Below, in pieces: positions 11,803 through 64,000 of a stretch of 64,000 bases of DNA. The notes beneath the pieces are model-generated. The model was not told the DNA's origin, searched no databases, and saw only the letters and a program-made list of their open reading frames with translations. Made by a program: the position numbers and the translations under genes. Positions within the stretch are counted from its first letter, which is position 1. Each line of letters opens with the position of its first letter. This DNA is from Mycobacterium phage prophiGD15-1, in the sequence record MW584180.1; one strand, written 5' to 3'.

Positions 11803-12120
11803 ATGCGTGACGATATTCACCCTGGACCGCGCATCATCTCCGGTAAAGCGGAACTACCCTGCCTGAAACCGGAGCCCTGGATGATCCAGGCGTCCTGCGC
11901 CACCGCAGACCCGGACGCGTTTTTCCCCCATAAGCGTGGCGACGGTGATAGCGAGTCGATCACCGTGCAGTACCAATACGCCAAGAAGATATGCCGCTCA
12001 TGCCCAGTCAGGGTTGAGTGTTTGACCTACGCGATCGTCAACGACGAACGCGACGGGATCTACGGCGGCTTAGGCCCTCGTGAGCGCGCGAAGATCATGC
12101 GTAACAGGGAGGCAAGCTGA
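11803..12120 (+). CDS. whiB: WhiB-family transcriptional regulator
   Basis: four-Cys Fe-S motif C..C-x2-C-x5-C (CATAD...CRSCPVRVEC) and G(I)YGG turn; GGAGG RBS upstream. Confidence 0.65.
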   Translation: MRDDIHPGPRIISGKAELPCLKPEPWMIQASCATADPDAFFPHKRGDGDSESITVQYQYAKKICRSCPVRVECLTYAIVNDERDGIYGGLGPRERAKIMRNREAS

Positions 12121-12434
12121 TGCCGCACTCAAGCCCTACCGACTGGATAGCCGGTGGAAGTGTCGCCGCAGACATCGTTGGATGCCTCACCGGTCTGGTC
12201 GCGGACCTGTCCTGGCAGGATAAAGCGGCGTGCCGTGGACTCCCTACGGAGTGGTGGTTCCCGGACCAAGGCGGCAGCCGGGAATGTAAGCGGGCCAAGG
12301 AAATCTGCCACGGCTGCCCAGTCAAACTCCAATGCCTCCAATTCGCGATAGAGGTACACGACCAGCACGGAATTTACGGGGAGCTGTCATTGAAGGACAG
12401 GCGCAGGTGGAACCAGGAAAGGAAAGCGGGCTAG
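12120..12434 (+). CDS. whiB: WhiB-family transcriptional regulator (second, tandem copy)
   Basis: CRGLPTEWWFPD...CHGCPVKLQC...GIYGE motif; ATGA overlap with upstream WhiB. Confidence 0.65.
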   Translation: MPHSSPTDWIAGGSVAADIVGCLTGLVADLSWQDKAACRGLPTEWWFPDQGGSRECKRAKEICHGCPVKLQCLQFAIEVHDQHGIYGELSLKDRRRWNQERKAG

Positions 12435-12475
12435 ACACCGCGAATGTCAGTGTATCGGAGGATAATTGAGGTATG
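12432..12475 (+). repeat. conserved stop-to-start intergenic motif copy 1 (TAGACACCGC-N-GATAATTGAGGTATG)
   Basis: seen in sequence; 41-nt stop-to-start spacing. Confidence 0.7.
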
Positions 12476-12904
12476 GGAATGACTGATTTACAGAACGTCC
12501 ACGAGCGCATTGCGGGCAAGCGTATAGCCTCCGTCGAGGCCGACGGTACGAGGCTGGTGCTAAACGATGGCACTGTGCTGCATCTCTACATGTCAGACAG
12601 TGACTGTTGTGCTTCCGCCGATGGGAAGTGGGTAATCCAGCCGGACGCGCTGGAGGCGATTATTACCGGCGTTCAGGTTACACCAGACGCGGATCGGAGC
12701 GGTTATGACGGTGACGGAAATACCAACTACGCCACCATCTCAATTCTGCACAACCAGAACCCCATTGCCCTTGCAGACTGCTATGCCAATGACGGTAATG
12801 GGGGCTACTACTTCTCCGTGCTATCCCTCCGTGTTGTCATGCCCGGTGACGAAGATGACGTCAAGGTGGAAGTCCTGAACTCTGACTCCTCGTCCAGCGA
12901 TTGA
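12473..12904 (+). CDS. hypothetical protein
   Basis: 143-aa ORF initiated from the conserved motif ATG. Confidence 0.45.
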   Translation: MGMTDLQNVHERIAGKRIASVEADGTRLVLNDGTVLHLYMSDSDCCASADGKWVIQPDALEAIITGVQVTPDADRSGYDGDGNTNYATISILHNQNPIALADCYANDGNGGYYFSVLSLRVVMPGDEDDVKVEVLNSDSSSSD

Positions 12905-12918
12905 GGAGGTAGTGAGAG

Positions 12919-13212
12919 TTGAGTGCTGAACCGCTGCAATGGGACCACAACCCAGATATTCGCGTCCCAAAGAATGGGTGCCGCGCCGAAGTTGACGGCG
13001 GTGCTTACATTCTGTTCAAGTACGGCGCTAGTTCGTGGCAGGTGCTTTTCAGCACTGGGTGGCATATACCCGATGAGGTCTATCTCGGCGACAGCGAATC
13101 AGACGCACTAGCCGCAGCAGAAGCTCACCATATCGCCATTAGGCAGAGAACGATCTACCGTCGAACGGGCAGGAGTGACGATGCCGCAGCGGATTCAGCG
13201 GAAGCGCACTAG
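12919..13212 (+). CDS. hypothetical protein
   Basis: 97-aa ORF. Confidence 0.35.
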   Translation: MSAEPLQWDHNPDIRVPKNGCRAEVDGGAYILFKYGASSWQVLFSTGWHIPDEVYLGDSESDALAAAEAHHIAIRQRTIYRRTGRSDDAAADSAEAH

Positions 13213-13549
13213 GGGTTGGCGAATGCCCGAGGGTGCTATCTACGTCGGGCGACCGAGCCAATGGGGCAACCCGTTTCGACCTGTTCTCGTCGGTGGCGAG
13301 TGGCTCATAGAGGATGACAACGGCGTCCAGTACGACGGGTTCGGGAGCAAGGTAAGCGCTATCGGTCGGTGCGTTGCGCTCTACCGGTCGCTCGATATGA
13401 CGTTCATGACAGACGCAGACCTAGACGAGTTCGTCGCGCCGCTACGGGGCCACGATCTCGCCTGCTGGTGCTCTCTCGATTCCCCTTGTCATGCAGACGT
13501 GCTGCTTGAACTCGCTAACGATCCACCGTCGAACGGAGAAGCTTTGTGA
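13175..13549 (+). CDS. DUF4326-domain protein
   Basis: N-terminal IQRKRTRGWRMPEGAIYVGRPSQWGNPF is the hallmark of DUF4326 found in many actinophages. Confidence 0.5.
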   Translation: MTMPQRIQRKRTRGWRMPEGAIYVGRPSQWGNPFRPVLVGGEWLIEDDNGVQYDGFGSKVSAIGRCVALYRSLDMTFMTDADLDEFVAPLRGHDLACWCSLDSPCHADVLLELANDPPSNGEAL

Positions 13550-13688
13550 GCGAACTACGTAGAGCACTGTTGGTAGCCAAAGCGGAAGCGGCACTTATCC
13601 CCACCGGCCGACGGGCTGAGCTCGACCGCAGATTCACTGCGGCCCAGAAGGCGGCACAGGCTCACGCCACGTACAGGAGGTCCGCTTA

Positions 13689-14366
13689 GTGTCCGTCTCC
13701 GACAGCTTCTTTCTCGATAAAGGCTCCCAACACAAGCTCCGTGAAGAGTTGGCCAGCATCCCCCGCATGATCGGGGAGCTGTCCGTCACCCTCACCCGCC
13801 AGGCTCGCATCCAGAGGCCAGGGTTGAGTATGTCCCGAAGGCCCAAGCCTGAGTCTCAGGTCCCCATCCATATCGGGGCACACAACGCCGCTGACGTACT
13901 GCACAACTGCCTAGGTACGTGGGTGAGGCTGGTATGCGAACAACGAGCGATCGTGTGGGATAAGGGCAACGACATCATCACGCTGGCCAAGTGGCTGCGA
14001 GTCAACATGATCGCCCTAGCCCTCACTGAAGGTTCAGAAGAAGCGTACGAGGACATCAAAGCCGCTATCGATGACTGCTGGCGACAGATAGACATCCCCG
14101 CCGACGATGACATTGTGATCGACCGAGGACGAGTACATGAAGCGAACAAACACATCGTCACCGCCGACACCATCGAACCTATCGCCCGCCGGATAGGGGA
14201 GATGGGAAAGAAGCTGAATGCGCAGCGGGTGCACTCGCTTACCCGTGGTGGGCATCTGCGTCCAGTCTCTAGCGACCCGGACACGGGTAAGAAGTTCTAC
14301 CGACTGGGGGATGTGCTGCACGCGCACAACAACTGCGAGAAACGAGACCGAAAGAAGGGCGCATGA
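13689..14366 (+). CDS. hypothetical protein (225 aa)
   Basis: GTG-start ORF. Confidence 0.45.
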   Translation: MSVSDSFFLDKGSQHKLREELASIPRMIGELSVTLTRQARIQRPGLSMSRRPKPESQVPIHIGAHNAADVLHNCLGTWVRLVCEQRAIVWDKGNDIITLAKWLRVNMIALALTEGSEEAYEDIKAAIDDCWRQIDIPADDDIVIDRGRVHEANKHIVTADTIEPIARRIGEMGKKLNAQRVHSLTRGGHLRPVSSDPDTGKKFYRLGDVLHAHNNCEKRDRKKGA

Positions 14367-14563
14367 GCGACGGACGCGGCATGTACATGAAGTACCGAGT
14401 TGAGCGGATGGACGGCAAGGATATGGGGCCATGTTTCATCCTTGAATACAAGAAGGATCGCCACGCGCGGGTGGCACTTGCGGCGTATGCCGACGCGTGC
14501 GCCGAGGACAATCCTGGACTAGCCCAAGACCTGCGGTGGACGCTAGAGGAGCTGGAGCGGTGA
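14363..14563 (+). CDS. hypothetical protein
   Basis: ATGA-coupled. Confidence 0.35.
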   Translation: MSDGRGMYMKYRVERMDGKDMGPCFILEYKKDRHARVALAAYADACAEDNPGLAQDLRWTLEELER

Positions 14564-14709
14564 GGGTCGGGACCTGTCCGAAGTGTAAGCACTTGGAAGG
14601 TCGACACATCCAGTCCACGTACTTCGATGAAGAGACGTGGACTGGCCGATTCGTGTACGCCAGGTGCGATTGTGGCTGCACCCACTACGTCGTAGTGGAG
14701 CCGGTCTAG
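14560..14709 (+). CDS. zinc-ribbon miniprotein
   Basis: CPKC ... CDCGC motifs. Confidence 0.35.
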   Translation: MRVGTCPKCKHLEGRHIQSTYFDEETWTGRFVYARCDCGCTHYVVVEPV

Positions 14710-14858
14710 TGTCGGCCCTCGACTGTGAGGGGAGTGACCTAGATCCTGGTTGGTGCTGCACCCATAGATGCGATTTCAGGGACCCTAGGCATCCGCACTG
14801 CTGGCAGAACTGTGACGAAGAAGATTGCGCCGCCCCTGAGTGTGATTGGGTTGAGTAG
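14709..14858 (+). CDS. Cys-rich miniprotein
   Basis: CC.H.C...HC...C...C...C pattern. Confidence 0.3.
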   Translation: MSALDCEGSDLDPGWCCTHRCDFRDPRHPHCWQNCDEEDCAAPECDWVE

Positions 14859-14859
14859 T

Positions 14860-15139
14860 TCACGCTGGTCGCACATACTGCGCAGGCCAAGGTATCTCAC
14901 GCATCTTCCACGCCTGCGTAGGGTTGGCCGCAGTGACCCAAACGATAGGCATATCGCGTCCGGGAACTACCCGAGTGGTAGTTAGACACTCAACTTCACC
15001 ACCGGTTGCGGTGGTTACGTAGACACGCATTCTAGCTTCAATACCCATACGTCTAGCGTCGGTCTTGCCAAAAGATCTGTAAAGAAAAATCTATGCGACA
15101 CCGCGTTATGGCAGTGCCTTATGGCAAGCCGCAAAGGGA
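14860..15139. promoter_or_regulatory. lower-GC intergenic region with direct CTTATGGCA repeats and a strong RBS; probable promoter/operator region upstream of the toxin-antitoxin moron
   Basis: AT-rich stretch ...aaaagatctgtaaagaaaaatctatg...ttatggcagtgccttatggcaag; 62-aa antisense ORF here judged unlikely to be coding. Confidence 0.3.
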
Positions 15140-15400
15140 GTGAAACTGATGAACGTATGGATAGTCTCTGCGCATCGGTCCTGGGGCGACAGGATTGAAT
15201 ACCACGGACACAGGGGGGATACCCACCGCTGGATGGGCTGGACGCGACCCATACCCAAGGTGGGGGAAGTTATTGAAACTGAATTGAAGTCCGGACGGGC
15301 GGCCCGCTTTCGGATAGTTGAGGTTGAGCGCGGGTACGGCACGGATGATATGTGGTGGGCCACAACCTCGGACGCGCCCATTTATGGAGCGACGACGTAA
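15140..15400 (+). CDS. hypothetical protein
   Basis: ATG with AAAGGGAG RBS; 86 aa. Confidence 0.4.
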   Translation: MKLMNVWIVSAHRSWGDRIEYHGHRGDTHRWMGWTRPIPKVGEVIETELKSGRAARFRIVEVERGYGTDDMWWATTSDAPIYGATT

Positions 15401-15446
15401 CTGCCTCCACCTTGCATAAGTATATCGGTTCTGATATATTAATGAG

Positions 15447-15779
15447 GTGACCGACGAAAAGCCTCTCCGCTGGATAGGTACCTCACTTGAGGACCTACGG
15501 GACTTCCCCGAAGCGGCACGGCAGGACGCCGGTTACCAACTGGATAGGGTTCAGCACGGCCTAGAGCCCCACGACTGGAAGCCAATGCCAACAGTCGGCA
15601 AGGGCTGCCGCGAGATACGCGTACGCACCGAAGACGGCGCGTACCGTGTGTTCTACGTAGCCACCCTTGGGGATGTGGTGTTCGTACTGCACAGCTTCGT
15701 CAAGAAGTCACAGAAGACTTCCCAGCAAGACATCAACACCGGTAAGGCTCGATACAAGAAAGCGCAGGAGGAACTATGA
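15447..15779 (+). CDS. higB: HigB/RelE-family (Gp49-like) toxin
   Basis: pattern KPL.W.G.S..DL..FP...R...G..L..VQ.G..P.D.KPM...G.G..E.R.....G.YRV.YV......VLH.F.KK.QKT matches Gp49-like/HigB toxins; upstream of HTH antitoxin with ATGA overlap. Confidence 0.6.
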   Translation: MTDEKPLRWIGTSLEDLRDFPEAARQDAGYQLDRVQHGLEPHDWKPMPTVGKGCREIRVRTEDGAYRVFYVATLGDVVFVLHSFVKKSQKTSQQDINTGKARYKKAQEEL

Positions 15780-16027
15780 GCGTATGGGACGACATCGCCG
15801 ACACCCCGCGCGAAGCGGAGAACCTTCGCGTGCGGTCTGAGCTGATGATGGCAATCGAAAAGAAGATCAACGAGCGCGAATGGACCCAGGTCCAGGCCGC
15901 CGAAGCACTCGGACTGACCCAGCCTCGGGTGTCGGATCTGCTGCGCGGCAAGATCTCCAAGTTCTCCTTGGATGCTCTCGTGGACATCGCTTCCGGGTTG
16001 GATGTGCACGTGAAGGTGTGCGTCTGA
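15776..16027 (+). CDS. higA: HigA-like XRE-HTH antitoxin
   Basis: QVQAAEALGLTQPRVSDLLRGKISKFSLDALVDIA is a typical HigA HTH; toxin-first gene order typical of HigBA. Confidence 0.6.
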   Translation: MSVWDDIADTPREAENLRVRSELMMAIEKKINEREWTQVQAAEALGLTQPRVSDLLRGKISKFSLDALVDIASGLDVHVKVCV

Positions 16028-16122
16028 TTGCGACACGCCGACCAGGGGATATACCCCTTAACCGCTGTCAAGTAGTAAACTGCGCATAGGCGCGACTTAC
16101 ACCCATTCTTTTAAACCCCCAT

Positions 16123-16157
16123 CGACATTTGTTCGGTGGGGGTTTTTCTATGCCCAA
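16123..16157 (+). terminator. rho-independent terminator (AACCCCC-loop-GGGGGTT + TTTTT)
   Basis: seen in sequence immediately downstream of higA. Confidence 0.6.
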
Positions 16158-16181
16158 ACGGAGGTTCCCTTATGCCTCTGT

Positions 16182-16322
16182 CTCGTGTCCGCTGCTGCAT
16201 CCCCTGTGGCCGTATCCGCTACGCCCCCTGCTCTGCAGGGTGTCGAGTAGATCCCGAGAACGACCCAACAAGCTGGACAGAACAGGTGCCGCCGAGCGAT
16301 GAAGCTGAGTAAGGAAGCGCGC
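16182..16322 (+). CDS. zinc-ribbon miniprotein (46 aa)
   Basis: CC.PCGRIRY..C..GC; GGAGG RBS. Confidence 0.35.
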
Positions 16323-16523
16323 AATACCGTCGCCGACTGCATCAGTAAGGGCATCCACCTGACGCTGGACGTTCAGTGCGATGGCGAGCCGATGGGCGGC
16401 TGGTGCGATAAGTGCGAGAAACCGTCGATGGTCGAAGTGCAACTGCGTGGCATCTCCACTGACGCCGTGTACGACCTCGGACCCGCCGTCGTATGTGCAA
16501 ACCATGAGGCTGGCGATGATTGA
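16299..16523 (+). CDS. Cys-rich hypothetical protein
   Basis: 74-aa ORF, CDGEPMGGWCDKCEK. Confidence 0.35.
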   Translation: MKLSKEARNTVADCISKGIHLTLDVQCDGEPMGGWCDKCEKPSMVEVQLRGISTDAVYDLGPAVVCANHEAGDD

Positions 16524-16767
16524 ATGTCTTGGTTGCGGCTCGACGGTGGGGCAAGACGGCGATTGCCCGCGCCCCGAACACTGCGGAAACTGCCCACCTT
16601 GGGACTGTGACGAATGCGGCCAGCAGTGCTCGATCAACACCCCTTGCGGGTGCTGGATTTTCCTTGAAGGCATGAACCTCGCCGACATCAAGGCGGTACT
16701 CGCCGCAGCCGATCTGAGTGTCAATGTGGAGGTGCCGCCATGCTCGACAGATTCTTCGCGGCACTAG
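16504..16767 (+). CDS. Cys-rich hypothetical protein
   Basis: CLGCGS...CPRPEHCGNCPPWDCDECGQQC...CGCW. Confidence 0.35.
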   Translation: MRLAMIECLGCGSTVGQDGDCPRPEHCGNCPPWDCDECGQQCSINTPCGCWIFLEGMNLADIKAVLAAADLSVNVEVPPCSTDSSRH

Positions 16768-17036
16768 CCGGCGCCATGGCCCCTCCACTCGTGGCCATGT
16801 GTGAGCGCATCGCGGATAAGAAGATCCCTGACGACACCGTGCCGAAGTTCATGGACGGCCTGCTGGATATCGCCCGCGACGGCGTTGACCGCGCCGTGAG
16901 TGTGGTGCAGACGTCCGCTGACGGTATTGCCGGTAGCGCGGAAGCTGAACTAGGTCAGCTCGGCTCGGAGATTAGGGGAGTGGTCAAAGCGGCCAACCCC
17001 ATAGATATTCTCGGCAGCCTGTTCGGGCGACGCTAG
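16740..17036 (+). CDS. hypothetical protein
   Basis: 98-aa ORF terminating in the conserved TAGACACCGC motif. Confidence 0.4.
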   Translation: MLDRFFAALAGAMAPPLVAMCERIADKKIPDDTVPKFMDGLLDIARDGVDRAVSVVQTSADGIAGSAEAELGQLGSEIRGVVKAANPIDILGSLFGRR

Positions 17037-17077
17037 ACACCGCTGATGTCGCTGCACCGCAGTAAAATTGAGGTATG
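17034..17077 (+). repeat. conserved stop-to-start intergenic motif copy 2
   Basis: TAGACACCGCTGATGTCGCTGCACCGCAGTAAAATTGAGGTATG. Confidence 0.7.
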
Positions 17078-17251
17078 AGCATTGAGACCGAGCGGCAGTT
17101 GAATCGCCGCTGCATTGAGCTGCAAGACGAGATAATCCGCTGGGGCGAGAAGGCGCAGTGGGCGCTTGAGCAAGATGACACCGGATGGTGGGGCGATGTC
17201 CTCGGTGGCATCGTCAAGCGCGGCAAGCTGATGGCAGAGAAGGGCACCTAA
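17075..17251 (+). CDS. hypothetical 58-aa protein
   Basis: ORF starting at motif ATG; below ORF-table cutoff. Confidence 0.35.
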   Translation: MSIETERQLNRRCIELQDEIIRWGEKAQWALEQDDTGWWGDVLGGIVKRGKLMAEKGT

Positions 17252-17253
17252 CG

Positions 17254-17361
17254 ATGTGCCCTCCACGCTGTCAGAACTGCATCCATCCGCAGCATGACCA
17301 CGAAGGCTGGTTTGGTCGCTGCACCCGCGACGACTGCGAATGTAAGGCAATGCAGGACTGA
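17254..17361 (+). CDS. Cys/His-rich miniprotein (35 aa)
   Basis: MCPPRCQNCIHPQHDHEGWFGRCTRDDCEC. Confidence 0.25.
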   Translation: MCPPRCQNCIHPQHDHEGWFGRCTRDDCECKAMQD

Positions 17362-17398
17362 CTTGCCCCTACAGCCTCTCCGTTCTACTATCGAACAC

Positions 17399-17644
17399 AT
17401 GTTCGACAAGGTGTCATACCGTATCGAAGGTGATGGACCCGTCACAGCGGTACTCACTTACCAAAACCGGGAGTACCGGCACACCTCCCGAACCATGTGG
17501 CTCGGACACGAAGACGGCATGCCCCAAGGCTCCATCCAACTCGACGAGCATGTGTGGGCGCGGCTACAGCGCATCAACGGAACCATAGAAGCCACCATCA
17601 CCGACTCTAAGACTGGTGAAAGCTACACCCTCACACCTGAATAG
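17399..17644 (+). CDS. hypothetical protein
   Basis: ends in TAGACACCGC motif. Confidence 0.35.
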   Translation: MFDKVSYRIEGDGPVTAVLTYQNREYRHTSRTMWLGHEDGMPQGSIQLDEHVWARLQRINGTIEATITDSKTGESYTLTPE

Positions 17645-17685
17645 ACACCGCGACTTACGCTGTAGCTCGGTAAAATTGAGGTATG
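17642..17685 (+). repeat. conserved stop-to-start intergenic motif copy 3
   Basis: TAGACACCGCGACTTACGCTGTAGCTCGGTAAAATTGAGGTATG. Confidence 0.7.
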
Positions 17686-17919
17686 GATGATCCCGAGATT
17701 GAAGTCGCTGAGGCGGTGTGTAAACGGCACAACTGGGACGGCATGATGTTTTGCGCTTGCACTGCCGCTGCTCGTGAAGCTTTGAAGCGAGTGGGCGCCG
17801 ATCTGCAATCCGTCGATGGCGTCTTAGGTCTGCTTCATCATCGAGGGCTTGTTGACTCCGAGCGCAATAGAGCTGATGTGAAAGCTGCCCTCGAAATCGT
17901 ACAGAGGTACACCCGATGA
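17683..17919 (+). CDS. hypothetical protein
   Basis: 78-aa ORF from motif ATG. Confidence 0.4.
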   Translation: MDDPEIEVAEAVCKRHNWDGMMFCACTAAAREALKRVGADLQSVDGVLGLLHHRGLVDSERNRADVKAALEIVQRYTR

Positions 17920-18191
17920 CTGAACCATCTCAAGCCCATATAGACCGGGCACGTGAACTCGGCCTCTCTTTCGATCCTTCTGATACATCGGATGAAGAGT
18001 TAAGCCGTGCTATCGCAACGTATGAGCGGGTTTACATCGAGGCGATGACCGAGAATGCTGGTAGGGACACTGATACTCCTACTGAGCGCCGCAAGATGCT
18101 GGGCGTATGGACTCAGCGCGATGAAGAAGAGGCCAAGGAAGCCGCTGAACGGCGGCGGATGTTCGGCTCCCGACGAATCCCACCCGCCTAG
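17916..18191 (+). CDS. hypothetical protein
   Basis: ATGA-coupled; ends in motif TAG. Confidence 0.4.
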   Translation: MTEPSQAHIDRARELGLSFDPSDTSDEELSRAIATYERVYIEAMTENAGRDTDTPTERRKMLGVWTQRDEEEAKEAAERRRMFGSRRIPPA

Positions 18192-18233
18192 ACACCGCTG
18201 ATTCCTCTGAAACGTCGGATAATTGAAGGTATG
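18189..18233 (+). repeat. conserved stop-to-start intergenic motif copy 4
   Basis: TAGACACCGCTGATTCCTCTGAAACGTCGGATAATTGAAGGTATG. Confidence 0.7.
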
Positions 18234-18503
18234 GACATCACCGAGAAGCCATTGACCAACCTGGCTGACACAATACATACAGCCCTGATCGGACACAGGC
18301 CGGACGACTACGCCTGCTACTACAAGCAGCTTTTCAATGTGTTTGGAGCGCCCGGCATCCCGAACACCTACGAGGCGGTACTCAAGCGTTACGGCAGGGT
18401 AATCCATCGAGAGACATTCTGGCGGCGCAAGAGCGCAGAGAAGCAATGCATCGCATGGAAGCGCTTGTATGACGCCGTCGTACTACCACCTCCACAGTCC
18501 TAG
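18231..18503 (+). CDS. hypothetical protein
   Basis: 90-aa ORF between two motif copies. Confidence 0.4.
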   Translation: MDITEKPLTNLADTIHTALIGHRPDDYACYYKQLFNVFGAPGIPNTYEAVLKRYGRVIHRETFWRRKSAEKQCIAWKRLYDAVVLPPPQS

Positions 18504-18544
18504 ACACCGCTGATCCCGTTGAAACGCGGGATAATTGAGGTATG
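18501..18544 (+). repeat. conserved stop-to-start intergenic motif copy 5
   Basis: TAGACACCGCTGATCCCGTTGAAACGCGGGATAATTGAGGTATG. Confidence 0.7.
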
Positions 18545-18709
18545 AACGACGAATTGAGCTTCCTGCTTGAGGCGTCGCCGGAAGAGTGGGATACCTTCAT
18601 TGGATGCCCACATACAGGCAAGTCCTACACGGAAGTGGGACGGCTAACCGGCGAGGTGTTCACGCGCTGCTGCGACTGTCACACGGCTTTGCCTAATCTC
18701 CCGTCCTAG
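18542..18709 (+). CDS. hypothetical 55-aa protein with C..C / C.C motifs
   Basis: ORF from motif ATG. Confidence 0.35.
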   Translation: MNDELSFLLEASPEEWDTFIGCPHTGKSYTEVGRLTGEVFTRCCDCHTALPNLPS

Positions 18710-18983
18710 CTGAATCCCTTTGGGAGGTAATCATGCTTGATGGTCAACCGTTGGGCGAGTACCCGGAACTGGGGCCGACGCACACCGCCGAGTATTTCGA
18801 GCTCCTAACACTGGCCTACTTAGCCAGGCTCATGGGTTACCACATCTAGTGCCATGCCCCTCACTGCTAACCAGCTCCGCATCCTAGAGGCGTTGCAGCG
18901 GTTACGTATAGCCCGTACTGAGGGCGATGTTGACGCCGAGCTCGTGGCCTACAGCCGCATGGATGAGCTACTGGATCGTGAAC

Positions 18984-19286
18984 CTAGGGGCATAGGTTCC
19001 GTTTCGCCGATCGCGCCATAGCCAACAGATTGGCTGGTGTCGCGTTCGGATAGTTGGAGTGCGAGGCGACCTGCTCGGGGGTTTCCCCGTTGCGCAAGTC
19101 ATTGCACATGCCGTTCCCGGCGGCCAGTAGGAACGGCCGGGACTGCCACATCACTTGAAAACCCTGCCCGGACAGTTCGTCCAGGTAGGCGTCATCGTCC
19201 GCGTACGCCGCGGGCGCGAAAACAATGCTGGCCGCTACGGCGGCTGCAGCTGCGATCTTGATCATTGGCGGATCGTAGACCTCCAC
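18984..19286 (-). CDS. secreted DUF732-like protein (minus strand)
   Basis: signal peptide IKIAAAAAVAASIVFAPAAYA, mature domain with Cys...Cys-Pro end; only confident minus-strand gene inside the phage body. Confidence 0.55.
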   Translation of the reverse strand: MEVYDPPMIKIAAAAAVAASIVFAPAAYADDDAYLDELSGQGFQVMWQSRPFLLAAGNGMCNDLRNGETPEQVASHSNYPNATPANLLAMARSAKRNLCP

Positions 19287-19394
19287 CCCGACGGGTACAG
19301 GCGAAACGGGAGATCAGATGGCCGTGCAGCACTGCGAGTACTGCGGCCGCCGCCTCCGGTACGACTGCTGCCCGCACTGTGAAGAGGGTGAGTA

Positions 19395-52806: not shown

Positions 52807-53565
52807 TTGGGTGTGCAAGCGTCTCGGGCGCTGGTTGCGCCGCAGATTGCTAGTGACGTTGACGTGGAGTTCGTCGCCGATGGTCAACGCCACAGAGTAC
52901 CGCTGGTTGAGTGCGCGATGCTCAGATTTGATTTGGATTGCTCACCTGCCCGCAACTTCCCGAATTTTAGAGGTCAAAGCAACTACCCAGGCCTGTGGTG
53001 GTTTGCTACGACTGGCCAGCATGTAGGTCATGAATCCTGGCTGGAACGTGATCATCTGATGCTGCTCGATGCTGATCCGCACGTTGTGGGTGTGGCGTCG
53101 CAGCCATTTCGGCTGCATTGGCCTGGTGGCACTCACCATGTCCCGGACTACTTTGCTAGATATGCCGATGGCGGTGTGACGGTTCTTGACGTGCGCGATG
53201 ACAAGCGCATCACTGAGGATGATCAGCTCAAGTTTGATCTTTCGGAAATTGCTTGTCGCACAGTGGGTTGGGGTTACCGCCAGTTAGGTGTGCCTGATCA
53301 GGTGTTGGTGGCGAACATTCGGTGGCTATCGGGGTATAGACACCCCCGAGTGTGCCGCGAGGATGTGGCGGAGTCGTTGCTCGCGGTGTTCGCCGAACCG
53401 GCGCGGCTATTGTCTGGCGCTCAAATCGTCGGTGATCGGCTGCATGTGTTGCCGGTGCTGTTTCATTTGTTGTGGCACAGGCAGTTGTCGACAGATTTGG
53501 CTGGCGCGTTGCTATCGGAGTCGGCGGTGGTCGGCCCTGCCGGATGGTGGGCGCATTCGTGTTGA
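52807..53565 (+). CDS. tnsA: TnsA-like endonuclease
   Basis: restriction-endonuclease-like E...D...(V/L)DVRDDK signature, gene position next to the transposon end and upstream of tnsB. Confidence 0.55.
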   Translation: MGVQASRALVAPQIASDVDVEFVADGQRHRVPLVECAMLRFDLDCSPARNFPNFRGQSNYPGLWWFATTGQHVGHESWLERDHLMLLDADPHVVGVASQPFRLHWPGGTHHVPDYFARYADGGVTVLDVRDDKRITEDDQLKFDLSEIACRTVGWGYRQLGVPDQVLVANIRWLSGYRHPRVCREDVAESLLAVFAEPARLLSGAQIVGDRLHVLPVLFHLLWHRQLSTDLAGALLSESAVVGPAGWWAHSC

Positions 53566-55634
53566 GGGCAGCTGCGGTACGCGTGGGTGATGAGATCCGT
53601 TTAGCTGGTGAACGTTTCACGGTCTTATCGATCACCGATGGTGCGGCGCGATTAATCAGTGCTGTCGGCGAGCGCAGTTCGGTGCCACTGCCGGCGTTGT
53701 GCACGGACCCGTCGTTGGAATTGGTGGCAACGTCATGGCCGCCATTGTGCTCCGAAGAGGCTTTGACTGGCGTACCCCAAGAGGTGGTGGAACGGGCACG
53801 CTGGTGGGAACAGCATCTGCTTGACGTGATCACCGGCCGCTCCGGGACCGGCATGGACACTGACAGTGCTGATTTCGACCCCGCGGTGACGACGCTGCGC
53901 CGCCGGGAGATGGCCAAGCTCGCCGAACTTGCCGATGAAGGTCATGTTTTGACGTTGCGGACGCTGCAGCGCCAACGCAAGGCCTACCAGCGTGACGGGC
54001 TGCTGGGTGTGCTGGATGGGCGTTACCGGCCGAACCGGCCCGTGCATGGGCGAGTCGATCCGCGGGTGAGCGAGACGGTAGTTGGTCTTATCGAGGCCGA
54101 AACTGAGTTGTCGACGGGCACGGTGCGCCGCATGCAGCGCAAGACCGCACGGGCGTTGAAGGCTCAGTACGGCGATGAGGCACCGCAAATGCCCTCGAAG
54201 GCAACATTTTATCGTCTGGTGGGCCGATTATCTGCGGGCAAGCACACGTTCGGGTCAGCCCGCACGCGCAGGTCGTTGGCCAAGCAGCCAGACAAACCGT
54301 TCGGGACGTTGACAGTGGCCCGCCCCGGCGAGGTGGTGGAGGTCGATTCCACACCCCTGGATGTAGCGGTGCGCTTCGATGACGGCACCGTTGGCCGGGT
54401 CGAGTTGATTGGGATGGTCGACTGTGCCACCCGCACGATCGCCGCAGCGGTATTGCGGCCAACAACCACGGCGGTGGATGCGGCGCTGCTGTTGGCGCGA
54501 TCGTTGACCCCGGAGCCGATGCGCCCAGGCTGGTCTGATGCGGTGCGGATGACGGCCTCAGTGCTACCCCATCACAGTTTGACCACTCTGGATCAGCGGT
54601 TCGCGGCCGCCGCTGCCCGGCCCGTGATCGCCCCAGAAACCATTGTGATCGATCACGGCAAAGCGTATCTGTCGCAGACATTTTCGCAGGCCTGCTGCAC
54701 GCTGGGGATCAATTTGCAGCCCGCGCACCCGGATGAGCCGACGGACAAACCGAAGATCGAACGCACTATCGAGTCGGTCGGCACGATGTTCGCCTCCGAG
54801 GTGGCCGGATATCTGGGGTCCTCGGTGGAGCGGCGCGGCAAGCACGCCGAAAAACGTGCCGTGTGGTCGATCGTGCAGTTGCAAGCGCTACTGGATGAAT
54901 GGATTGTCACCGCCTGGCAGAACCGGCCCCACGACGGGCTGCGCGACCCCTTAACTCCGGGAAAGACGTTGACTCCCAATGAGAAATACGCAGCCCTGGT
55001 CGAGGTGGCCGGGTATGTGCCGGTGGCCTTGAGCGGTGATGACTACATCGAACTGCTGCCGACGCGGTGGCGCAAGATCAACTCCTACGGGGTGCGGATC
55101 AACAATCGCCACTACGACGCCAAAGCCTTCAACCCCTACCGCGGCCAATCTTCGGGGGTCGGTAAGAAGAACAATAGGTGGGAAGTGCATTTCGACCCGT
55201 GCGATGTGTCCCGGGTTTGGGTGCGCAATCACCACGAATCGGGCTGGATCCAGGCCAACTGGACGCACCTGCGGACCGCGCCGGTGCCGTTCGGGGAAAC
55301 GATCTGGAAGCAGAGCCAACAGATCCTGGCCGAGCGCGGCCAGCGTGCCGCGACGCAAGCCGAGATCGCCGAAGCGGCCGAAGAATTGCTGACTCGGGCC
55401 GCTGCCGGGCCGCCAGAGCAGCTCGTGGACAAGAAGATCCGCCGGAAGCTGGTTCGCGCCCAGCACTCCACCGTGACACCGCTGTGGCCACGCCCAGCAC
55501 CCGATTTACCCGCCGACGGCCCTGTGGTGGCCGATCGCGGCGATAGGGACAACGACGATGTGATTGATGTGGCGGCAGTGGTGCCGCTTCCGGTGTTCGA
55601 TGCCCGCAAGGAGGCCAAATTGTGGCGACTGTAA
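53545..55634 (+). CDS. tnsB: TnsB/TniA-like DDE transposase (Mu-type, rve core)
   Basis: VVEVDSTPLDV (D) ... VIDHGKAYLS (D) ... E; ~700 aa. Confidence 0.75.
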
Positions 55635-56671
55635 ATAGATTCGAGGCCGTCAACCCGCTCGATGATCGCCGCCAGCCCACCACCACCTTGGAGGGCTGGC
55701 GGCGTTTCGTTGAGGCCGATCCACCCGAGTTCACGCTCCTGGACGATACGCAGTGGCGCAGTCTGGATGTGCGGGACCGGATGCTCTACGACGAGGCCCG
55801 AATCGCCCATCACTCCGAACTGGTCGTGGTCACCACGTCGGCGATCGCCCGGATCAACAACGAAGGCCGGCTGCTGACCCTGCTCAATCAGTGCGAGATC
55901 GGAGCCCGCCGCGGTTTGATCATTTCCGGGGATGCGGCCACCGGGAAGACCACGGCCATCAAACAGATGGGCCGCACCCATGAACTGCGGGTGCGGGGAC
56001 GCCTGACCTACGACGCCACGTACGACGCCGTCGCGGGCCGTATCCCGGTGGTATACGTGACGGCCCCGCCCAAGGGCTCACCACGCAAACTGGCGATGGA
56101 ATTCGCCCGTTTCCTGGGGCTGCCGATGACTATGAACGCCCGTGCGAACGTCACCGACATCGCCGACGCGGTCTGCCAAGTCCTCATCGATGCCCGCACC
56201 GACATCGTGGTTGTCGACGAGATCCACAACCTGAACCTGGAAACCCGCGCCGGAGAAGACCTCTCGGATCATCTCAAATATTTCACCGAACACCTGCCCG
56301 CTACGTTCATCTACGCCGGCATCGACGTCGAACGTTCCGGGGTATTCACAGGTACCCGCGGAAAACAACTCGCTGGACGCTGCGGAGTTATCCACACCCA
56401 GGCCTTCCCCTACAACGAGGAATGGATCTCGCTGGTGGCAGGGATGGAGAACACGTTGCGACTGCACCACCACGAACCCGGAACCCTTGTCGCCGACGCC
56501 AAATACTTGCATCGGCGCACCAACGGCATGATCGGCTCGCTGGCGCACCTGATCCGCTCAGCAGCTATCCGTTCCATCATCGACGAGACCGAAGCCGTCA
56601 CCCGGGCACTGATGGATGCCACCCTGCTCGACTACGCCGCGCAAAGCGCTGCGGCCCGAACCGCCAGCTGA
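55622..56671 (+). CDS. tnsC: TnsC/TniB-like AAA+ ATPase
   Basis: Walker A LIISGDAATGKTTAI, Walker B VVVDEIHNL. Confidence 0.7.
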   Translation: MATVNRFEAVNPLDDRRQPTTTLEGWRRFVEADPPEFTLLDDTQWRSLDVRDRMLYDEARIAHHSELVVVTTSAIARINNEGRLLTLLNQCEIGARRGLIISGDAATGKTTAIKQMGRTHELRVRGRLTYDATYDAVAGRIPVVYVTAPPKGSPRKLAMEFARFLGLPMTMNARANVTDIADAVCQVLIDARTDIVVVDEIHNLNLETRAGEDLSDHLKYFTEHLPATFIYAGIDVERSGVFTGTRGKQLAGRCGVIHTQAFPYNEEWISLVAGMENTLRLHHHEPGTLVADAKYLHRRTNGMIGSLAHLIRSAAIRSIIDETEAVTRALMDATLLDYAAQSAAARTAS

Positions 56672-57510
56672 TGAACACCGCCACCGCCGCAGGACGCGCC
56701 TGGCCGGCCGGGCCGCGTCAACGCTTACCACGTGTAGTGACCCCATTCCGCACCGAGACAGTGAGTTCGTATATCGACCGGCTAGCCCACGCCAACCACC
56801 TCACCCGAGGCCGGTTGCAGTACCACGTCGCCGCAGGCACCTACCAGACCCGCGCCGACTGGCTCGCCGTCGCCACCGGAATCGCCGAAAACATCCTGCG
56901 CGAACGGCTCATTGGGTTCGGAGCGGCCAACGGCACCAACGCCAAACAACAAGCCCGGGTACGGCCCGCCTGCCGGCTGTGCATGGCCCGTCGCGGTGTC
57001 TACGAGCCCGTCCACTGCTGGCTGCCCGCGTACGAAACTGTATGTTTTCGCCACTTACGCTGGATCGGCCCCGGCGCGGCCACCTGGGAAGACCAACACG
57101 ACCTGAGCAATCACCCCGATATCGTGGTCGCCGCCCGCCGCCACCGCCAGCTGATCCGAGCCCACCGCGACCTCGCCGGCAGCGCCTTGTCCGAGGCCCG
57201 CCACATCCTGACCTGGTGGTCCCGGGTCAACCAAGACAGCGGCGACGACCAGACAGACCCGACCACGTATCTGCAGGCCTACCCAGACCTGATCACGATC
57301 GCTACCGTGCTGGCCGATCACCGCCACCAAGTCGCCGCCGGTCCCTGCACCAGGCATCCGATCTGGTCTGAGCACCTGCTGGGTTTGATCAACACACACG
57401 CAACCACCATCCGCGACGACCCCCGGCCTCTACAGCACTGGATCGACGACCAACGCATCATCGCCCGCATCCGGCCACCACGGCACAAATCCGCCTGGTC
57501 AGCACCCTGA
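56671..57510 (+). CDS. tniQ: TniQ/TnsD-like target-selection protein
   Basis: N-terminal PFRTETVSSYIDRLAHANHL is the TniQ signature; followed by Cys/His cluster (CRLC...C...H). Confidence 0.55.
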   Translation: MNTATAAGRAWPAGPRQRLPRVVTPFRTETVSSYIDRLAHANHLTRGRLQYHVAAGTYQTRADWLAVATGIAENILRERLIGFGAANGTNAKQQARVRPACRLCMARRGVYEPVHCWLPAYETVCFRHLRWIGPGAATWEDQHDLSNHPDIVVAARRHRQLIRAHRDLAGSALSEARHILTWWSRVNQDSGDDQTDPTTYLQAYPDLITIATVLADHRHQVAAGPCTRHPIWSEHLLGLINTHATTIRDDPRPLQHWIDDQRIIARIRPPRHKSAWSAP

Positions 57511-62284: not shown

Positions 62285-62605
62285 CTACGGCTGGCTGTTC
62301 CAATGGGCTAGGTCTTCATCGTCGATCAGTGTGACGACTATCTGGGCGATCCGCTCATCACTCTCGTCAGTGCCGTAGTCCACGATCCACGCCCAGATGT
62401 CGTAGCCGCCGTCGCCGAATCCTGCCGAAAACTGCACCCCGGACCCGTACTTACTGAATAGGTTGTGACCACTACCGATTCCTGGATACTTGGCTGGGGC
62501 AAAAGCGGGGTCGGTGATCGCGGCCATGGCCGAGTCGACCGAGACGCCGCCGATGCGTTCCCATCGACCGTTGCGGCCTGGGGCTGGTGTTGGTGGTTCA
62601 CCCAT
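62285..62605 (-). CDS. hypothetical protein (minus strand)
   Basis: 106-aa ORF, convergent with upstream + genes. Confidence 0.35.
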   Translation of the reverse strand: MGEPPTPAPGRNGRWERIGGVSVDSAMAAITDPAFAPAKYPGIGSGHNLFSKYGSGVQFSAGFGDGGYDIWAWIVDYGTDESDERIAQIVVTLIDDEDLAHWNSQP

Positions 62606-62659
62606 CCCTCAATTTTACGCCGTTGCAGTCGAAGTCGCGGTGTCTAGGCCCCGCGCGAG

Positions 62660-63090: not shown

Positions 63091-63438
63091 GTGAACATGG
63101 CCGACTGGCAGCTGCCGCCACTTGCTCAAGACGGCTGGGGCCTAGCGACCTGGGTAGTAATAGCATTCGTCGTCATGTGTTTCCTCGGCATCCTGTGGAC
63201 GCTGCAACACTTCGACCTCAAAGCCATCCGGCACCAAACAGAGAACTCCCACGACACCAACCTGCGTGACGACATCGACGAGATACGCGAGATGGTCCGC
63301 GACGGAATGGCCGACATCCGCAGCGATATCTCCGGTATCCGAAAAGACATCGGAGGACTGCGCGGAGAGCTGCGCACCGAACGCGAAGAACGCATCGAAT
63401 CCGACGCCCGCATATGGCGGGGACCCTGGAAGGCTTAG
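63091..63438 (+). CDS. membrane protein with coiled-coil tail
   Basis: N-terminal TM helix WGLATWVVIAFVVMCFLGILW; heptad-like DI..I repeats. Confidence 0.4.
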   Translation: MNMADWQLPPLAQDGWGLATWVVIAFVVMCFLGILWTLQHFDLKAIRHQTENSHDTNLRDDIDEIREMVRDGMADIRSDISGIRKDIGGLRGELRTEREERIESDARIWRGPWKA

Positions 63439-63476
63439 ACCCCGCCGTTAGCGCTTACCGCCAATAGAATTGGGGT

Positions 63477-63731
63477 ATGACAGCGGGGCAATGGTTTGGA
63501 ACCGTTCTTATGATCGTGTTCGGAGTGTGGTTCGTTGGATTCAATATCCTCCTTTGGGTAGGCGACCGCATAGATAAACGGAACCGCGCCGAACTGGCAG
63601 ACATCAGTCGGGACTTCGACGCGCTAGGCCCAAATCCGAGCCTTGAGGAGATGCAGCCAGCGCTAGATCGTCTCGCCGCCTACCGAATCAGGTTTGAGAA
63701 CTGGCGCTCGCCCACCAGTAATCCGACCTGA
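63477..63731 (+). CDS. small membrane protein
   Basis: 2 TM helices at N-terminus. Confidence 0.4.
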   Translation: MTAGQWFGTVLMIVFGVWFVGFNILLWVGDRIDKRNRAELADISRDFDALGPNPSLEEMQPALDRLAAYRIRFENWRSPTSNPT

Positions 63732-63750: not shown

Positions 63751-63801
63751 GCCCCCGGCTCCCGTGCTTCCCCCCAGCATGGTTGAGCCGGGGGCTTTTT
63801 T
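63751..63801 (+). terminator. strong rho-independent terminator (GCCCCCGGCTC ... GAGCCGGGGGC + TTTTTT)
   Basis: perfect 11-bp stem then T6. Confidence 0.7.
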
Positions 63802-63958
63802 GCGTTGTGGACCTGCGGCGATGCTTCCCAGCAACGGGGTGCGGTGGCCCGTAAGGGCTCTCGGTATGCTCTCTAGGCTCGGAGCGAAAACCGTTAGGCT
63901 ACAGTCTAGGCTACAGTTGGCTTAGGATTTAGTCAGGAAATACGCCCTGAGCAGCGAT

Positions 63959-64000
63959 GGGGCGGTAGCTCAGTTGGTTAGAGCCGTGGACTCATAATCC
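63959..64000 (+). tRNA. tRNA-Met (CAT anticodon), 5' part only (runs off window end)
   Basis: GGGGCGG-TA-GCTC-AGTTGGTTA-GAGC-C-GTGGA-CTCATAA: acceptor, D-arm and anticodon stem-loop with CAT readable. Confidence 0.7.

Follow-up and report, generated by a model that had tools for sequence, protein, structure and literature searches.

A repeated stop-to-start module of MabA prophages as a probable promoter cassette for leaderless small genes

Why does the same element of about 44 bp recur between the stop codon of one gene and the start codon of the next? In the window, the 64,000-nucleotide stretch of Mycobacterium phage prophiGD15-1 analysed here (MW584180.1), the original prediction had placed five such copies, at 12432, 17034, 17642, 18189 and 18501, and had offered a protein or ribosome recognition element or a gene-cassette junction as explanations; it considered neither a promoter nor leaderless mRNA. 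The module is real and all five copies lie at these coordinates, but the count was incomplete, since the window holds seven. An eighth copy lies in the left arm of the prophage, outside the window.

12432..12475, + strand: module copy 1, after the second whiB gene; box 12432-12441, -10 GATAAT 12461-12466, transcription start and ATG 12473
17034..17077, + strand: module copy 2; box 17034-17043, -10 TAAAAT 17063-17068, transcription start and ATG 17075
17642..17685, + strand: module copy 3; -10 TAAAAT 17671-17676, transcription start and ATG 17683
18189..18233, + strand: module copy 4; -10 GATAAT 18218-18223, transcription start and ATG 18231
18501..18544, + strand: module copy 5; -10 GATAAT 18530-18535, transcription start and ATG 18542
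62603..62646, - strand: module copy 6 (added); -10 TAAAAT, transcription start and ATG 62605
63436..63479, + strand: module copy 7 (added), diverged, TAGACCCCGC-N19-TAGAAT-TGGGGT-ATG; transcription start and ATG 63477

A weight-matrix scan of the window scored exactly these seven at 31-60 bits, with no other site exceeding 12 bits, and it found neither half-site in this form without its partner. Shuffled sequence is expected to give 0.00 matches to the full pattern; the left box TAGACACCGC occurs 12 times with at most one mismatch (4.2 expected) and ATTGAGGTATG 7 times (0.58 expected). Copy 7 carries the half-sites TAGACCCCGC...TAGAATTGGGGTATG, while copy 4, with the sequence ATTGAAGGTATG, has a 7-nt discriminator (TGAAGGT) and is therefore one base longer, at 45 nt.

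The stop-to-start layout is the rule across relatives. Of 38 distinct contexts, 33 have a frame open for at least 40 codons that ends at the TAG of the box (7 and 9 for the other two frames), as in copy 1, where this TAG is the stop of the whiB gene, and in all 38 an ORF of at least 54 codons follows the module. An exception in the window is copy 6, which heads a leftward transcription unit in a divergent intergenic region and whose TAG closes no long ORF. As a cluster MabA1 prophage of Mycobacterium abscessus, the window shares at least 99% identity over 12-19 kb with other MabA1 prophages; strain ATCC 19977 also carries a MabA1 prophage (1754373-1816169). A search of phage genomes, as had been suggested, recovered the module in the relatives (MabA1-A3), where it is used 7-9 times per genome, and in none of 50,697 phage records beyond 16 MabA records. 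The distance from box to hexamer is exactly 19 nt in each of 33 distinct copies taken from MabA1, A2 and A3; positions 2, 4, 5 and 6 of the hexamer are invariant, and all length variation falls within the discriminator.

Published dRNA-seq data from ATCC 19977, which carries the same prophage sequence although it is not the window's own strain, show what the right half-site does under the one growth condition covered. We predicted the genome positions of the seven ATGs from the prophage coordinates before looking them up in the table of transcription start sites (TSSs). In all seven copies, a TSS coincides with the A of the ATG (5'UTR 0): copy 1 at 1773427 (window 12473; depth 165.5), copy 2 at 1778029 (1887.5), copy 3 at 1778637 (1808), copy 4 at 1779185 (508), copy 5 at 1779496 (266), copy 6 at 1814774 (MAB_1812c; 733.5) and copy 7 at 1815646 (MAB_1815; 736, with a promoter string identical to the window). 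The left-arm copy has its own TSS at 1756936 (depth 497). For six of the seven copies, the 52-nt promoter string given in the table matches the window exactly; copy 6 is supported by its coordinate alone, as the sequence column of the table is corrupted there. Coincidence is excluded because only 7,218 starts were mapped in 5 Mb.

The right half-site thus combines a -10 hexamer (TAAAAT, GATAAT or TAGAAT at -12 to -7) with a 6-7 nt discriminator (TGAGGT) and a leaderless start, and is no Shine-Dalgarno site; the depth tracks the quality of the hexamer (1887, 1808 and 733 for TAAAAT against 165, 508, 266 and 497 for GATAAT). ATTGAGGT comprises the -10 hexamer and the discriminator, so it is RNA polymerase that recognises it, starting on the A of the ATG. 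With high confidence, we read the module as a compact promoter cassette, spanning the entire gap between two genes, in which the box, the hairpin and the conserved ends would have additional roles.

These promoters are active in the lysogen: the small genes they drive are both transcribed and translated, amid lytic genes that remain silent.

12473..12904, + strand: first gene behind copy 1, 143 aa, DUF7448
17075..18709, + strand: cassette array driven by copies 2-5; annotated small ORFs 17075-17251, 17294-17644, 17683-17919, 17916-18191, 18231-18503 and 18542-18709
62285..62605, - strand: gene behind copy 6, 106 aa, no assigned function
63477..63731, + strand: gene behind copy 7, 84 aa, no assigned function
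63751..63801, + strand: intrinsic terminator, GC-rich hairpin followed by T6

In the ATCC 19977 lysogen, the module-driven genes show 9-94 RPKM of RNA and 2-47 RPKM of ribosome footprints, against ~0-4 RPKM for neighbouring phage genes, and they appear in the published study's sheet of leaderless mRNAs. The gene behind copy 1 reaches 13.9 (RNA) and 25.3 RPKM (footprints), compared with 2.1 and 0 for the whiB gene upstream, and RNA rises from 0.9 to 46 RPKM across copy 2. The cassette array has 46-94 RPKM of RNA and 20-47 RPKM of footprints, with 1-4 peptides for four of its ORFs; peptides were detected for MAB_1767-1770. The genes behind copies 6 and 7 have 36 and 9.1 RPKM of RNA and 14 and 7.9 RPKM of footprints, respectively. 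A Pfam search of the array ORFs gave no family, and their PHROGs matches are of unknown function. Across a published series of conditions, the module-driven genes are not uniformly co-regulated. The terminator at 63751..63801 (-37.4 kcal/mol, z = -5.5) closes the copy-7 unit, which is thus a promoter-gene-terminator arrangement adjoining attR.

The module could instead be conserved chiefly as a recombination linker, its ends being homology patches for the exchange of ORF cassettes and its promoter incidental. Comparison among MabA relatives, which are not independent samples, bears on this directly: 12 of 64 homology-block ends fall at module edges where 2.0 are expected (p = 7e-7), a 6-fold excess over random positions and a ~2.5-fold excess over ordinary gene junctions, which also carry breakpoints (2.4 ends per module junction, 0.95 per ordinary one). 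Several pairs of relatives have only the 44-bp module in common, with different flanks on both sides. The genes behind modules are mostly missing from relatives, as the original prediction had anticipated in naming variable presence as a check, and two have homologues behind a different module, in CCUG48898T-2 and prophiGD91-2; a gene-cassette junction is thus borne out. The TAG acting as the upstream stop in most contexts is likewise as expected for cassettes cut at the box. However, a pure linker would work without invariance at A-11 and T-7, without a spacing of exactly 19 nt and without a start codon placed exactly 6-7 nt past the hexamer; it leaves the TSS at every copy unexplained, and copy 6 heads a unit without a gene upstream. 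We therefore consider this reading possible rather than probable as a full account, and it fits best as a second role of the promoter cassette and not as an alternative to it. Because both of its ends are conserved, the module may also be a homology patch, as judged from sequence comparison, and recombination there would exchange whole cassettes from ATG to TAG.

The variable centre raises a different option, that the module is chiefly a terminator or insulator whose core is the hairpin, with the conserved ends as context. A hairpin had been proposed for every copy. In the GATAAT class it is borne out by covariation: 79% of cells are paired compared with 35-55% in slid controls, both sides change in four of seven pairs, and the observed pairing was reached by 1 of 500 shuffles. 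RNA falls from 81 to 12 RPKM across copy 5, which has the strongest stem (ATCCCGT / GCGGGAT, loop TGAAAC), and a terminating ribosome would not melt the stem because the stop codon lies ~12 nt before it. The TAAAAT class, in contrast, has no consistent hairpin, the stabilities of the module hairpins are unremarkable (mean z = -0.9), and a scan for a hairpin followed by a T-run matched none of the modules. Moreover, RNA is held at 75-94 RPKM across copies 3 and 4, and the sequence conservation lies in the ends rather than in the stem. A terminator as the main function is therefore unlikely. Within the promoter cassette, the centre of GATAAT-type copies would fold, in read-through RNA from upstream, into a short hairpin overlapping the -10 element, which may stop or destabilise the upstream transcript.

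The RNA levels across copies 3 and 4 show that transcripts from an upstream module run through downstream ones, so that module sequence is present within some mRNAs. This speaks for a translation signal, as proposed for the start-associated sequences of cluster K, with ribosomes that finish at the TAG re-initiating 41 nt further on in a polycistronic RNA. GAGGT is complementary to the 3' end of 16S rRNA, and the gap from stop to start does not vary in length. Primary transcripts as mapped, however, have a 5'UTR of 0 and do not include the sequence; with the TSS at the A of the ATG, ATTGAGGT lies outside the mapped mRNA, and a ribosome recognition element is wrong for these transcripts. GAGG also stops 1-2 nt short of the ATG, much too close for a Shine-Dalgarno site, which needs roughly 5-9 nt; copy 6 offers no upstream ORF at which ribosomes could terminate; and the invariant positions are those of the -10 hexamer and not of a ribosome site. 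We regard this reading as improbable.

The box TAGACACCGC spans -41 to -32, which is too distant by 6 bp for a normal -35 element. A box that the prophage repressor binds to block transcription from upstream, the stoperator analogy of the original prediction, is very improbable. Like stoperators, the box is a short asymmetric site that always points in the direction of transcription and sits in short gaps at stop codons, but it is invariant across MabA prophages with at least three unrelated repressor types (others being only 32% identical), the repressor/early-promoter intergenic regions of these prophages have no box (best matches with 2-4 mismatches), and the genes immediately behind it belong to the small set that the lysogen expresses. 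The box is therefore not the operator of the immunity repressor, nor is that repressor its reader. Its fixed distance from the -10 element suggests a second promoter element, the reader of which would be a factor common to all MabA phages or supplied by the host. The strong host promoter of MAB_2162, which encodes an mpa-like ATPase (depth 6200), shows the same register, with TAGACCCCGC-N19-TAGCGT-TGAAGC-A(+1); it is the one such case, and the probability of that register arising by chance is ~0.01. Its box is unchanged in M. chelonae while the flanks differ. Any contribution of the box to promoter activity is putative, as the toxin gene promoter of the same prophage, which has no box, is equally strong (depth 978).

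Among known systems, the module most closely resembles the extended start-associated sequences (ESAS), a promoter motif that recurs in cluster K mycobacteriophages (Pope 2011, PMC3203893; Adephagia study 2024, PMC11373665). Both are ~45-bp motifs repeated at least seven times, found only between non-structural genes, in a single orientation and directly 5' of ATG starts; both are kept across subclusters despite different downstream genes, and in both the stop codon of the preceding gene sometimes falls within the motif. The current interpretation of ESAS is that it contains a promoter, with some downstream genes expressed in lysogens; it has SigA-like -35 and -10 hexamers 17-18 bp apart and a sequence-conserved 15-17-bp inverted repeat, while SAS is a separate ribosome-site-like element 3-9 bp from the start (PMC3203893, PMC11373665). 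The MabA module has no sequence similarity to ESAS, no -35 element at the ESAS spacing and no leader; it has the box instead, its stem covaries rather than being conserved in sequence, and its start sites are measured whereas those of ESAS are predicted.

The morons of temperate phages, described by Hendrix and colleagues, are promoter-gene-terminator units expressed from the prophage, and they normally carry unrelated promoters. MabA units likewise consist of small accessory genes that have a promoter of their own, are active in the lysogen amid silent neighbours and vary between relatives, and copy 7 with its gene and terminator is a textbook unit. They differ in reusing one standardised promoter module, fused to the preceding stop codon, and most have no canonical terminator.

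Cluster A stoperators share with the box their form, their position and their large number per genome, but they are silencing repressor sites, one of which is the early promoter operator, whereas the MabA box is common to phages with unrelated repressors, is missing at the early promoter and precedes expressed genes. In mycobacteria, the 'sigma adaptation' promoters that depend on PafBC combine a canonical -10 with an additional upstream element in place of a -35, and this element is read by a factor that bridges to SigA (PMC8635444). By motif fit, copies 1 and 2 hold tGTCgg(N10)tA(N3)T in the correct register (TGTCAG-N10-GATAAT and TGTCGC-N10-TAAAAT), and any PafBC dependence of theirs is putative; the PafBC element lies at -28 to -23, however, the MabA box has another position and sequence, and the GTC triplet is missing in five of the seven window copies.

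Integron attC sites are also short, with conserved ends and a variable hairpin-forming centre, and they too separate small ORFs in arrays that differ in content from one relative to another. The conserved ends of the module, however, lack complementarity to one another, and no integron integrase is involved; integron cassettes come without promoters of their own, whereas every MabA junction is a promoter.

The five copies of the ~44-bp stop-to-start module that the original prediction had placed at 12432, 17034, 17642, 18189 and 18501 were all found there, the one at 18189 carrying one additional base (ATTGAAGGTATG). The weight-matrix search proposed with that prediction, run with a matrix built from relatives, recovered them together with two additional copies, a minus-strand one (62603-62646) and a diverged one (63436-63479). 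These seven window copies score 31-60 bits and all else at most 12 bits; 0.00 chance matches to the full module pattern are expected, and in the same scan the half-sites in module form were never found singly within the window. An eighth copy lies in the left arm of the prophage, beyond the window. The first five copies are in the early, non-structural arm, just 3' of two tandem whiB genes. Over this region (12-19 kb), eleven M. abscessus phages and prophages of cluster MabA1 (including phiGD23-1, prophiGD20-1 and prophiGD22-1) share 99-100% identity with the window, and five further MabA members match it partially.

With modules from MabA2 (prophiGD02-2), MabA3 (prophiGD91-2) and two divergent MabA1 members added to those of the window, we obtained 33 distinct module sequences, with 7-9 per genome among the genomes obtained in full. 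The box, which is the conserved left half-site containing the TAG stop codon, is nearly invariant among them, its distance to the hexamer is 19 nt in 33 of 33, and the extra base of the five longer modules always falls in the discriminator. The hexamer is GATAAT (16), TAAAAT (12), TAGAAT (3), AATAAT (1) or GACAAT (1) and is followed by 6 or 7 nt and then the start codon; its positions 2, 4, 5 and 6 are invariant, where the hexamer scan demanded A2 and T6 and the matrix scan found no copy without them. The predicted stop-to-start layout also holds across relatives. Of 38 distinct contexts, 33 have a frame of 40 or more open codons that ends at the TAG, compared with 7 and 9 for the other two frames, and an ORF of at least 54 codons follows the module in all 38. 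The copy at 62646 (minus) heads a unit in a divergent intergenic region and has no gene upstream, indicating that the module works without a preceding cistron. The modules are confined to the non-structural region, in one orientation and before ATG starts, and are kept across subclusters despite different downstream genes. In prophiGD02-2 (L006 27593-27868, minus strand), two modules lie 230 bp apart and the first has no annotated gene behind it; a 61-codon ORF that begins at its ATG is probably an unannotated small gene.

In the window, the hexamer (TAAAAT, GATAAT or TAGAAT) ends 6 nt 5' of the A of the ATG, where a mycobacterial -10 element would be expected for transcription that begins on that A. 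We computed the genome coordinates of the ATGs in ATCC 19977, the M. abscessus type strain with the same MabA1 prophage (1754373-1816169), as the window position + 1,760,954 for the first five copies and + 1,752,169 for the other two, and compared them with the log-phase dRNA-seq start-site table of Miranda-CasoLuengo et al. 2016 (Dataset S1, PMC4974804). A published start with a 5'UTR length of 0 is present at all seven predicted ATG positions.

Published transcription starts on the module ATGs (window copy; ATCC 19977 start site; gene; read depth)
12432; 1773427; MAB_1757; 165.5
17034; 1778029; MAB_1766; 1887.5
17642; 1778637; MAB_1768; 1808
18189; 1779185; MAB_1770; 508
18501; 1779496; MAB_1771; 266
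62646 (minus); 1814774; MAB_1812c; 733.5
63436; 1815646; MAB_1815; 736

Transcription starts on the module ATGs, and chance agreement is excluded because the table holds 7,218 starts in a 5-Mb genome. The 52-nt promoter string in the published table is identical to the window sequence for six of the seven copies; for MAB_1812c the sequence cell is a spreadsheet artefact and the coordinate alone counts. A start is also mapped to the left-arm module of ATCC 19977 (1756936, depth 497). By read depth, the TAAAAT copies come out strongest (1887, 1808 and 733) and the GATAAT copies weakest (165-508), as expected if the hexamer is a -10 element. The modules thus show all the marks of leaderless -10-type promoters, namely a 5' end on the start codon, a TANNNT-like hexamer and a translated ORF. 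A Shine-Dalgarno role for the GAGG of the right half was rejected, as transcripts begin at the ATG and this GAGG ends 1-2 nt from it, too close for a Shine-Dalgarno site. We also considered TAGACA as a -35 element, but its spacer to the -10 element, 23 bp, is too long, and a consensus scan of 12000-19300 found no sigma-70 -35/-10 pair.

Two other leaderless starts were observed in this prophage type. In the left arm of ATCC 19977, beyond the window, a decayed relative of the module with a shortened centre, TAGAGGCTCA-N14-GATAGT-TGAAGT-ATG, has a mapped start on its own ATG (1756656, depth 143.5). At window 15447-16027 there is a RelE-like toxin/antitoxin pair, whose GTG at 15447 is the site of a published leaderless start (1776401, depth 978); the promoter there has no box and ends in ...TATTAATGAGGTG, with GAGGT directly before the start codon.

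The expression data of the same study (Dataset S2, PMC4974804; columns confirmed) provide values for the genes behind the modules, which also appear in its leaderless-mRNA sheet.

Expression in the ATCC 19977 lysogen (gene; RNA, RPKM; ribosome footprints, RPKM; peptides, where listed)
MAB_1765, upstream of the copy at 17034; 0.9
MAB_1766; 46; 28; 0
MAB_1767; 90; 20; 3
MAB_1768; 75; 21; 4
MAB_1769; 94; 20; 2
MAB_1770; 81; 47; 1
MAB_1771; 12; 2; 0
MAB_1757; 14; 25
MAB_1812c; 36; 14
MAB_1815; 9; 8

Structural and most early phage genes are at about 0-4 RPKM. These values indicate that the module promoters are active in the lysogen and that the leaderless messages are translated; the module genes are expressed and translated in a lysogen. 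For the commonest type of M. abscessus prophage, found in ATCC 19977 and in many clinical isolates, this accounts for which genes are on in lysogens and for the way in which they are turned on. The cassette genes comprise one with a DUF7448 domain and otherwise belong to PHROGs of unknown function, and small ORFs of this kind are typically suspected of roles in phage defence or host modulation. The modules also constitute a measured, portable 44-bp leaderless promoter series for M. abscessus, with read depths from ~165 to 1900.

The original prediction had a short hairpin in every module centre, and this stands for only one of the two main classes. In the GATAAT class, the centre forms a stem of up to 7 pairs with a TGAAAC loop, and its 3' arm takes in the first three bases of the -10 element. 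Over 15 distinct copies, 79% of the cells are paired versus 35-55% with slid partners, a contrast that is somewhat inflated since the stem model was derived from the same 15 sequences. The stem covaries: four of its seven pairs are changed on both sides (e.g. C-G in five, G-C in five and U-A in one), and the observed score was reached by only 1 of 500 shuffles. In contrast, the TAAAAT-type copies have no consistent stem, and the stem stabilities of the modules are modest (mean z = -0.9). Pairing of a box variant, ACCCC, with GGGG of the right half in the TAGAAT class was rejected as covariation, since other copies carry one of the two changes alone.

As the stem is 5' of the start site, only read-through RNA from upstream could contain it. 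The copy at 18501, which has the best stem, coincides with a fall in RNA from 81 to 12 RPKM, with no fall across the copies at 17642 and 18189, where stems are weak or absent; this single drop would fit a stem that ends or destabilises read-through RNA. A terminator scan found no hairpin-plus-T-run at the modules, where the stems are followed by AATTGAGG, and no Rfam family was found in 11-20 kb at E <= 1. A strong intrinsic terminator at window 63751-63801 follows the last prophage gene (-37.4 kcal/mol, z = -5.5, then T6) and would halt transcripts of the module at 63436 short of attR.

The exact spacing between the box and the -10 element across a variable centre suggests that the two are read together, the box, at -41 to -32, being a putative promoter element. 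MAB_2162, an mpa-like AAA ATPase gene of ATCC 19977, has a strong promoter (start site 2175950, depth 6200) of the form TAGACCCCGC-N19-TAGCGT-TGAAGC-A(+1), in the same register as the prophage module. In its M. chelonae counterpart (L016 1569-1609, minus strand), the box is unchanged while the flanks differ, with changes at 3 of the 9 upstream bases and at 3 of the 19 central ones. The chance of a host box match in the same register is ~0.01 by estimate, and we regard the MAB_2162 box as a lead to a host factor rather than as proof. An invariant box 19 nt from the -10 element that recurs at one strong host promoter offers a testable route to a promoter-recognition factor. The box does not appear to be a general host promoter word, since in the part of the start-site table covered its occurrences are confined to prophage promoters and MAB_2162. 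In a list that is probably that of genes up-regulated in sputum medium, MAB_2162 appears together with MAB_1766, 1767, 1769, 1770 and 1771 (five of the six array genes), and MAB_1757, 1768, 1812c and 1815 are missing from it; this list of 1,116 genes is uninformative on common regulation.

The PafBC ('sigma adaptation') motif, tGTCgg(N10)tA(N3)T with GTC at -27 to -25, is fitted by the centres of the copies at 12432 and 17034 and is missing from the other five window copies.

Centres fitting the PafBC motif (window; sequence)
12445-12466, copy at 12432; TGTCAG-N10-GATAAT
17047-17068, copy at 17034; TGTCGC-N10-TAAAAT

The MabA2 orthologue of the copy at 12432 has TGTCGG and fits as well, and the copies at 12432 and 17034 may be under DNA-damage control. 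An immunity repressor as reader of the box is poorly compatible with the comparison of six prophages, which share the same box although their repressors are of at least three types, either unrelated or just 32% identical to one another, and which have no box in their repressor/early-gene intergenic regions; as far as the sequences tell, the box reader is not the immunity repressor.

The module had also been predicted to be a gene-cassette junction that lets small genes shuffle, and a second role of this kind is supported by the comparison of window 11.0-19.3 kb with four relatives (homology blocks of at least 100 nt). Block ends are in excess at the modules, with 12 of 64 versus 2.0 expected (p = 7e-7), or 2.4 per module junction versus 0.95 per ordinary gene junction; these breakpoint statistics are indicative only because the relatives are not independent samples. 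Several pairs share nothing but the 44-bp module, with both flanks different. The genes directly behind the modules, whose variable presence had been proposed as a check, are mostly absent from each relative, and homologues of two of them reappear elsewhere: directly behind the post-whiB module, CCUG48898T-2 has the homologue of the gene at 17075, and prophiGD91-2 one that is 45% identical to the gene at 18231. These observations suggest that the module promotes cassette exchange. Linker-based exchange of phage modules is an old proposal, for which these modules offer a concrete example: mosaic breakpoints coincide here with a conserved intergenic linker.

The module is restricted to MabA: among 50,697 phage records, BLAST with two module types as queries matched only the 16 MabA records, and an IMG/VR pattern scan gave one match, by chance, in an unrelated contig. 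Species-representative genomes gave 0 matches, but M. abscessus itself seems absent or masked there, and as a looser scan missed M. abscessus even for a host core promoter, absence from that collection says little. We found no description of the repeat in papers on these M. abscessus prophages or, among the papers listed, by full-text search for motif strings; the start sites have been public since 2016, as table rows only.

At its right end, the window matches prophiGD20-1 and shares with it a transposon insertion not found in the other members. This Tn7-like insertion (TnsA, transposase, DNA-binding and other genes; right arm, about 53200-58000) is found, among the MabA1 records, only in prophiGD20-1, and a chance TAGACACCGC match lies inside it at 56993 on the minus strand. 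Between 19 kb and 52 kb, the coordinate offset of the window to prophiGD20-1 changes by about 1.6-1.9 kb, with another 0.3 kb past 52 kb; this indicates that the source of the window is closely related to prophiGD20-1 but is not that record itself. At 63958-64000 lies the start of a tRNA-Met gene (anticodon CAT; 5' part), cut by the window end; this is the attR core, and MabA1 phages are reported to rebuild the 5' end of that tRNA-Met. Repeated TAGGCTACAGT words just upstream, at 63898-63925, look like integrase arm-type sites.

Among known systems, the ESAS/SAS elements of cluster K are the nearest analogue. ESAS, an intergenic motif of 46-47 bp of which Adephagia has 7 copies, is now read as bearing SigA-like promoters, with some lysogenic expression (PMC11373665). 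Like the MabA module, it is a repeat of the non-structural region only, in one orientation, before ATG and kept across subclusters. However, ESAS has SigA-like -35 and -10 hexamers 17-18 bp apart and a conserved 15-17-bp imperfect inverted repeat, whereas the MabA module has no -35 element, a box at -41 to -32 and stem arms that covary. The SAS consensus GGGATAGGAGCCC stands 3-9 bp before the start, whereas no spacer separates GAGGT from the ATG in MabA, and the absence of a leader and the measured start sites are both unlike ESAS/SAS. For the mapped transcripts, the earlier proposal of a ribosome or start-associated element fails, as the module sequence is unrelated to SAS and the transcripts begin on the ATG.

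The module units also resemble morons in having their own promoter and being expressed from the prophage. Only the copy at 63436 has a clear terminator, the other units having just the weak stem of the next module and no canonical terminator in the scan, and this copy with its gene and the terminator at 63751-63801 is a complete moron beside attR. The likeness to stoperators, likewise proposed earlier, is one of layout: the module is short and asymmetric and lies in short intergenic gaps in one orientation with transcription, all copies pointing with the downstream gene and filling stop-to-start gaps. In function the analogy breaks down, since the downstream genes are at 9-94 RPKM in the lysogen versus about 0-4 for the flanks. 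The stoperator of cluster A phages is, moreover, an operator of the phage's own repressor at the early promoter, whereas the MabA box occurs alongside unrelated repressors and is absent from that position.

A further comparison is with the integron attC site, whose ends pair as inverted repeats; in the common module classes, no more than 3 bp can form between the box and the right half, and the right half nowhere contains GCGGTGTCTA, the box's reverse complement. It is conceivable, if rather unlikely, that the module is a standardised, self-contained expression and exchange unit like attC but with a promoter, its box read by a host factor that also acts, from the same -41 to -32 position, at the promoter of mpa (proteasome ATPase). 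The 44 bp would then hold, besides a stop codon, a box bound by a factor, a hairpin that serves as insulator and a promoter for leaderless mRNA, and MabA prophages would plug in accessory ORFs, express them in the lysogen and shuffle them by homologous recombination. If true, the box would represent a new upstream promoter element class, or a sigma-adaptor site, in Mycobacteroides.
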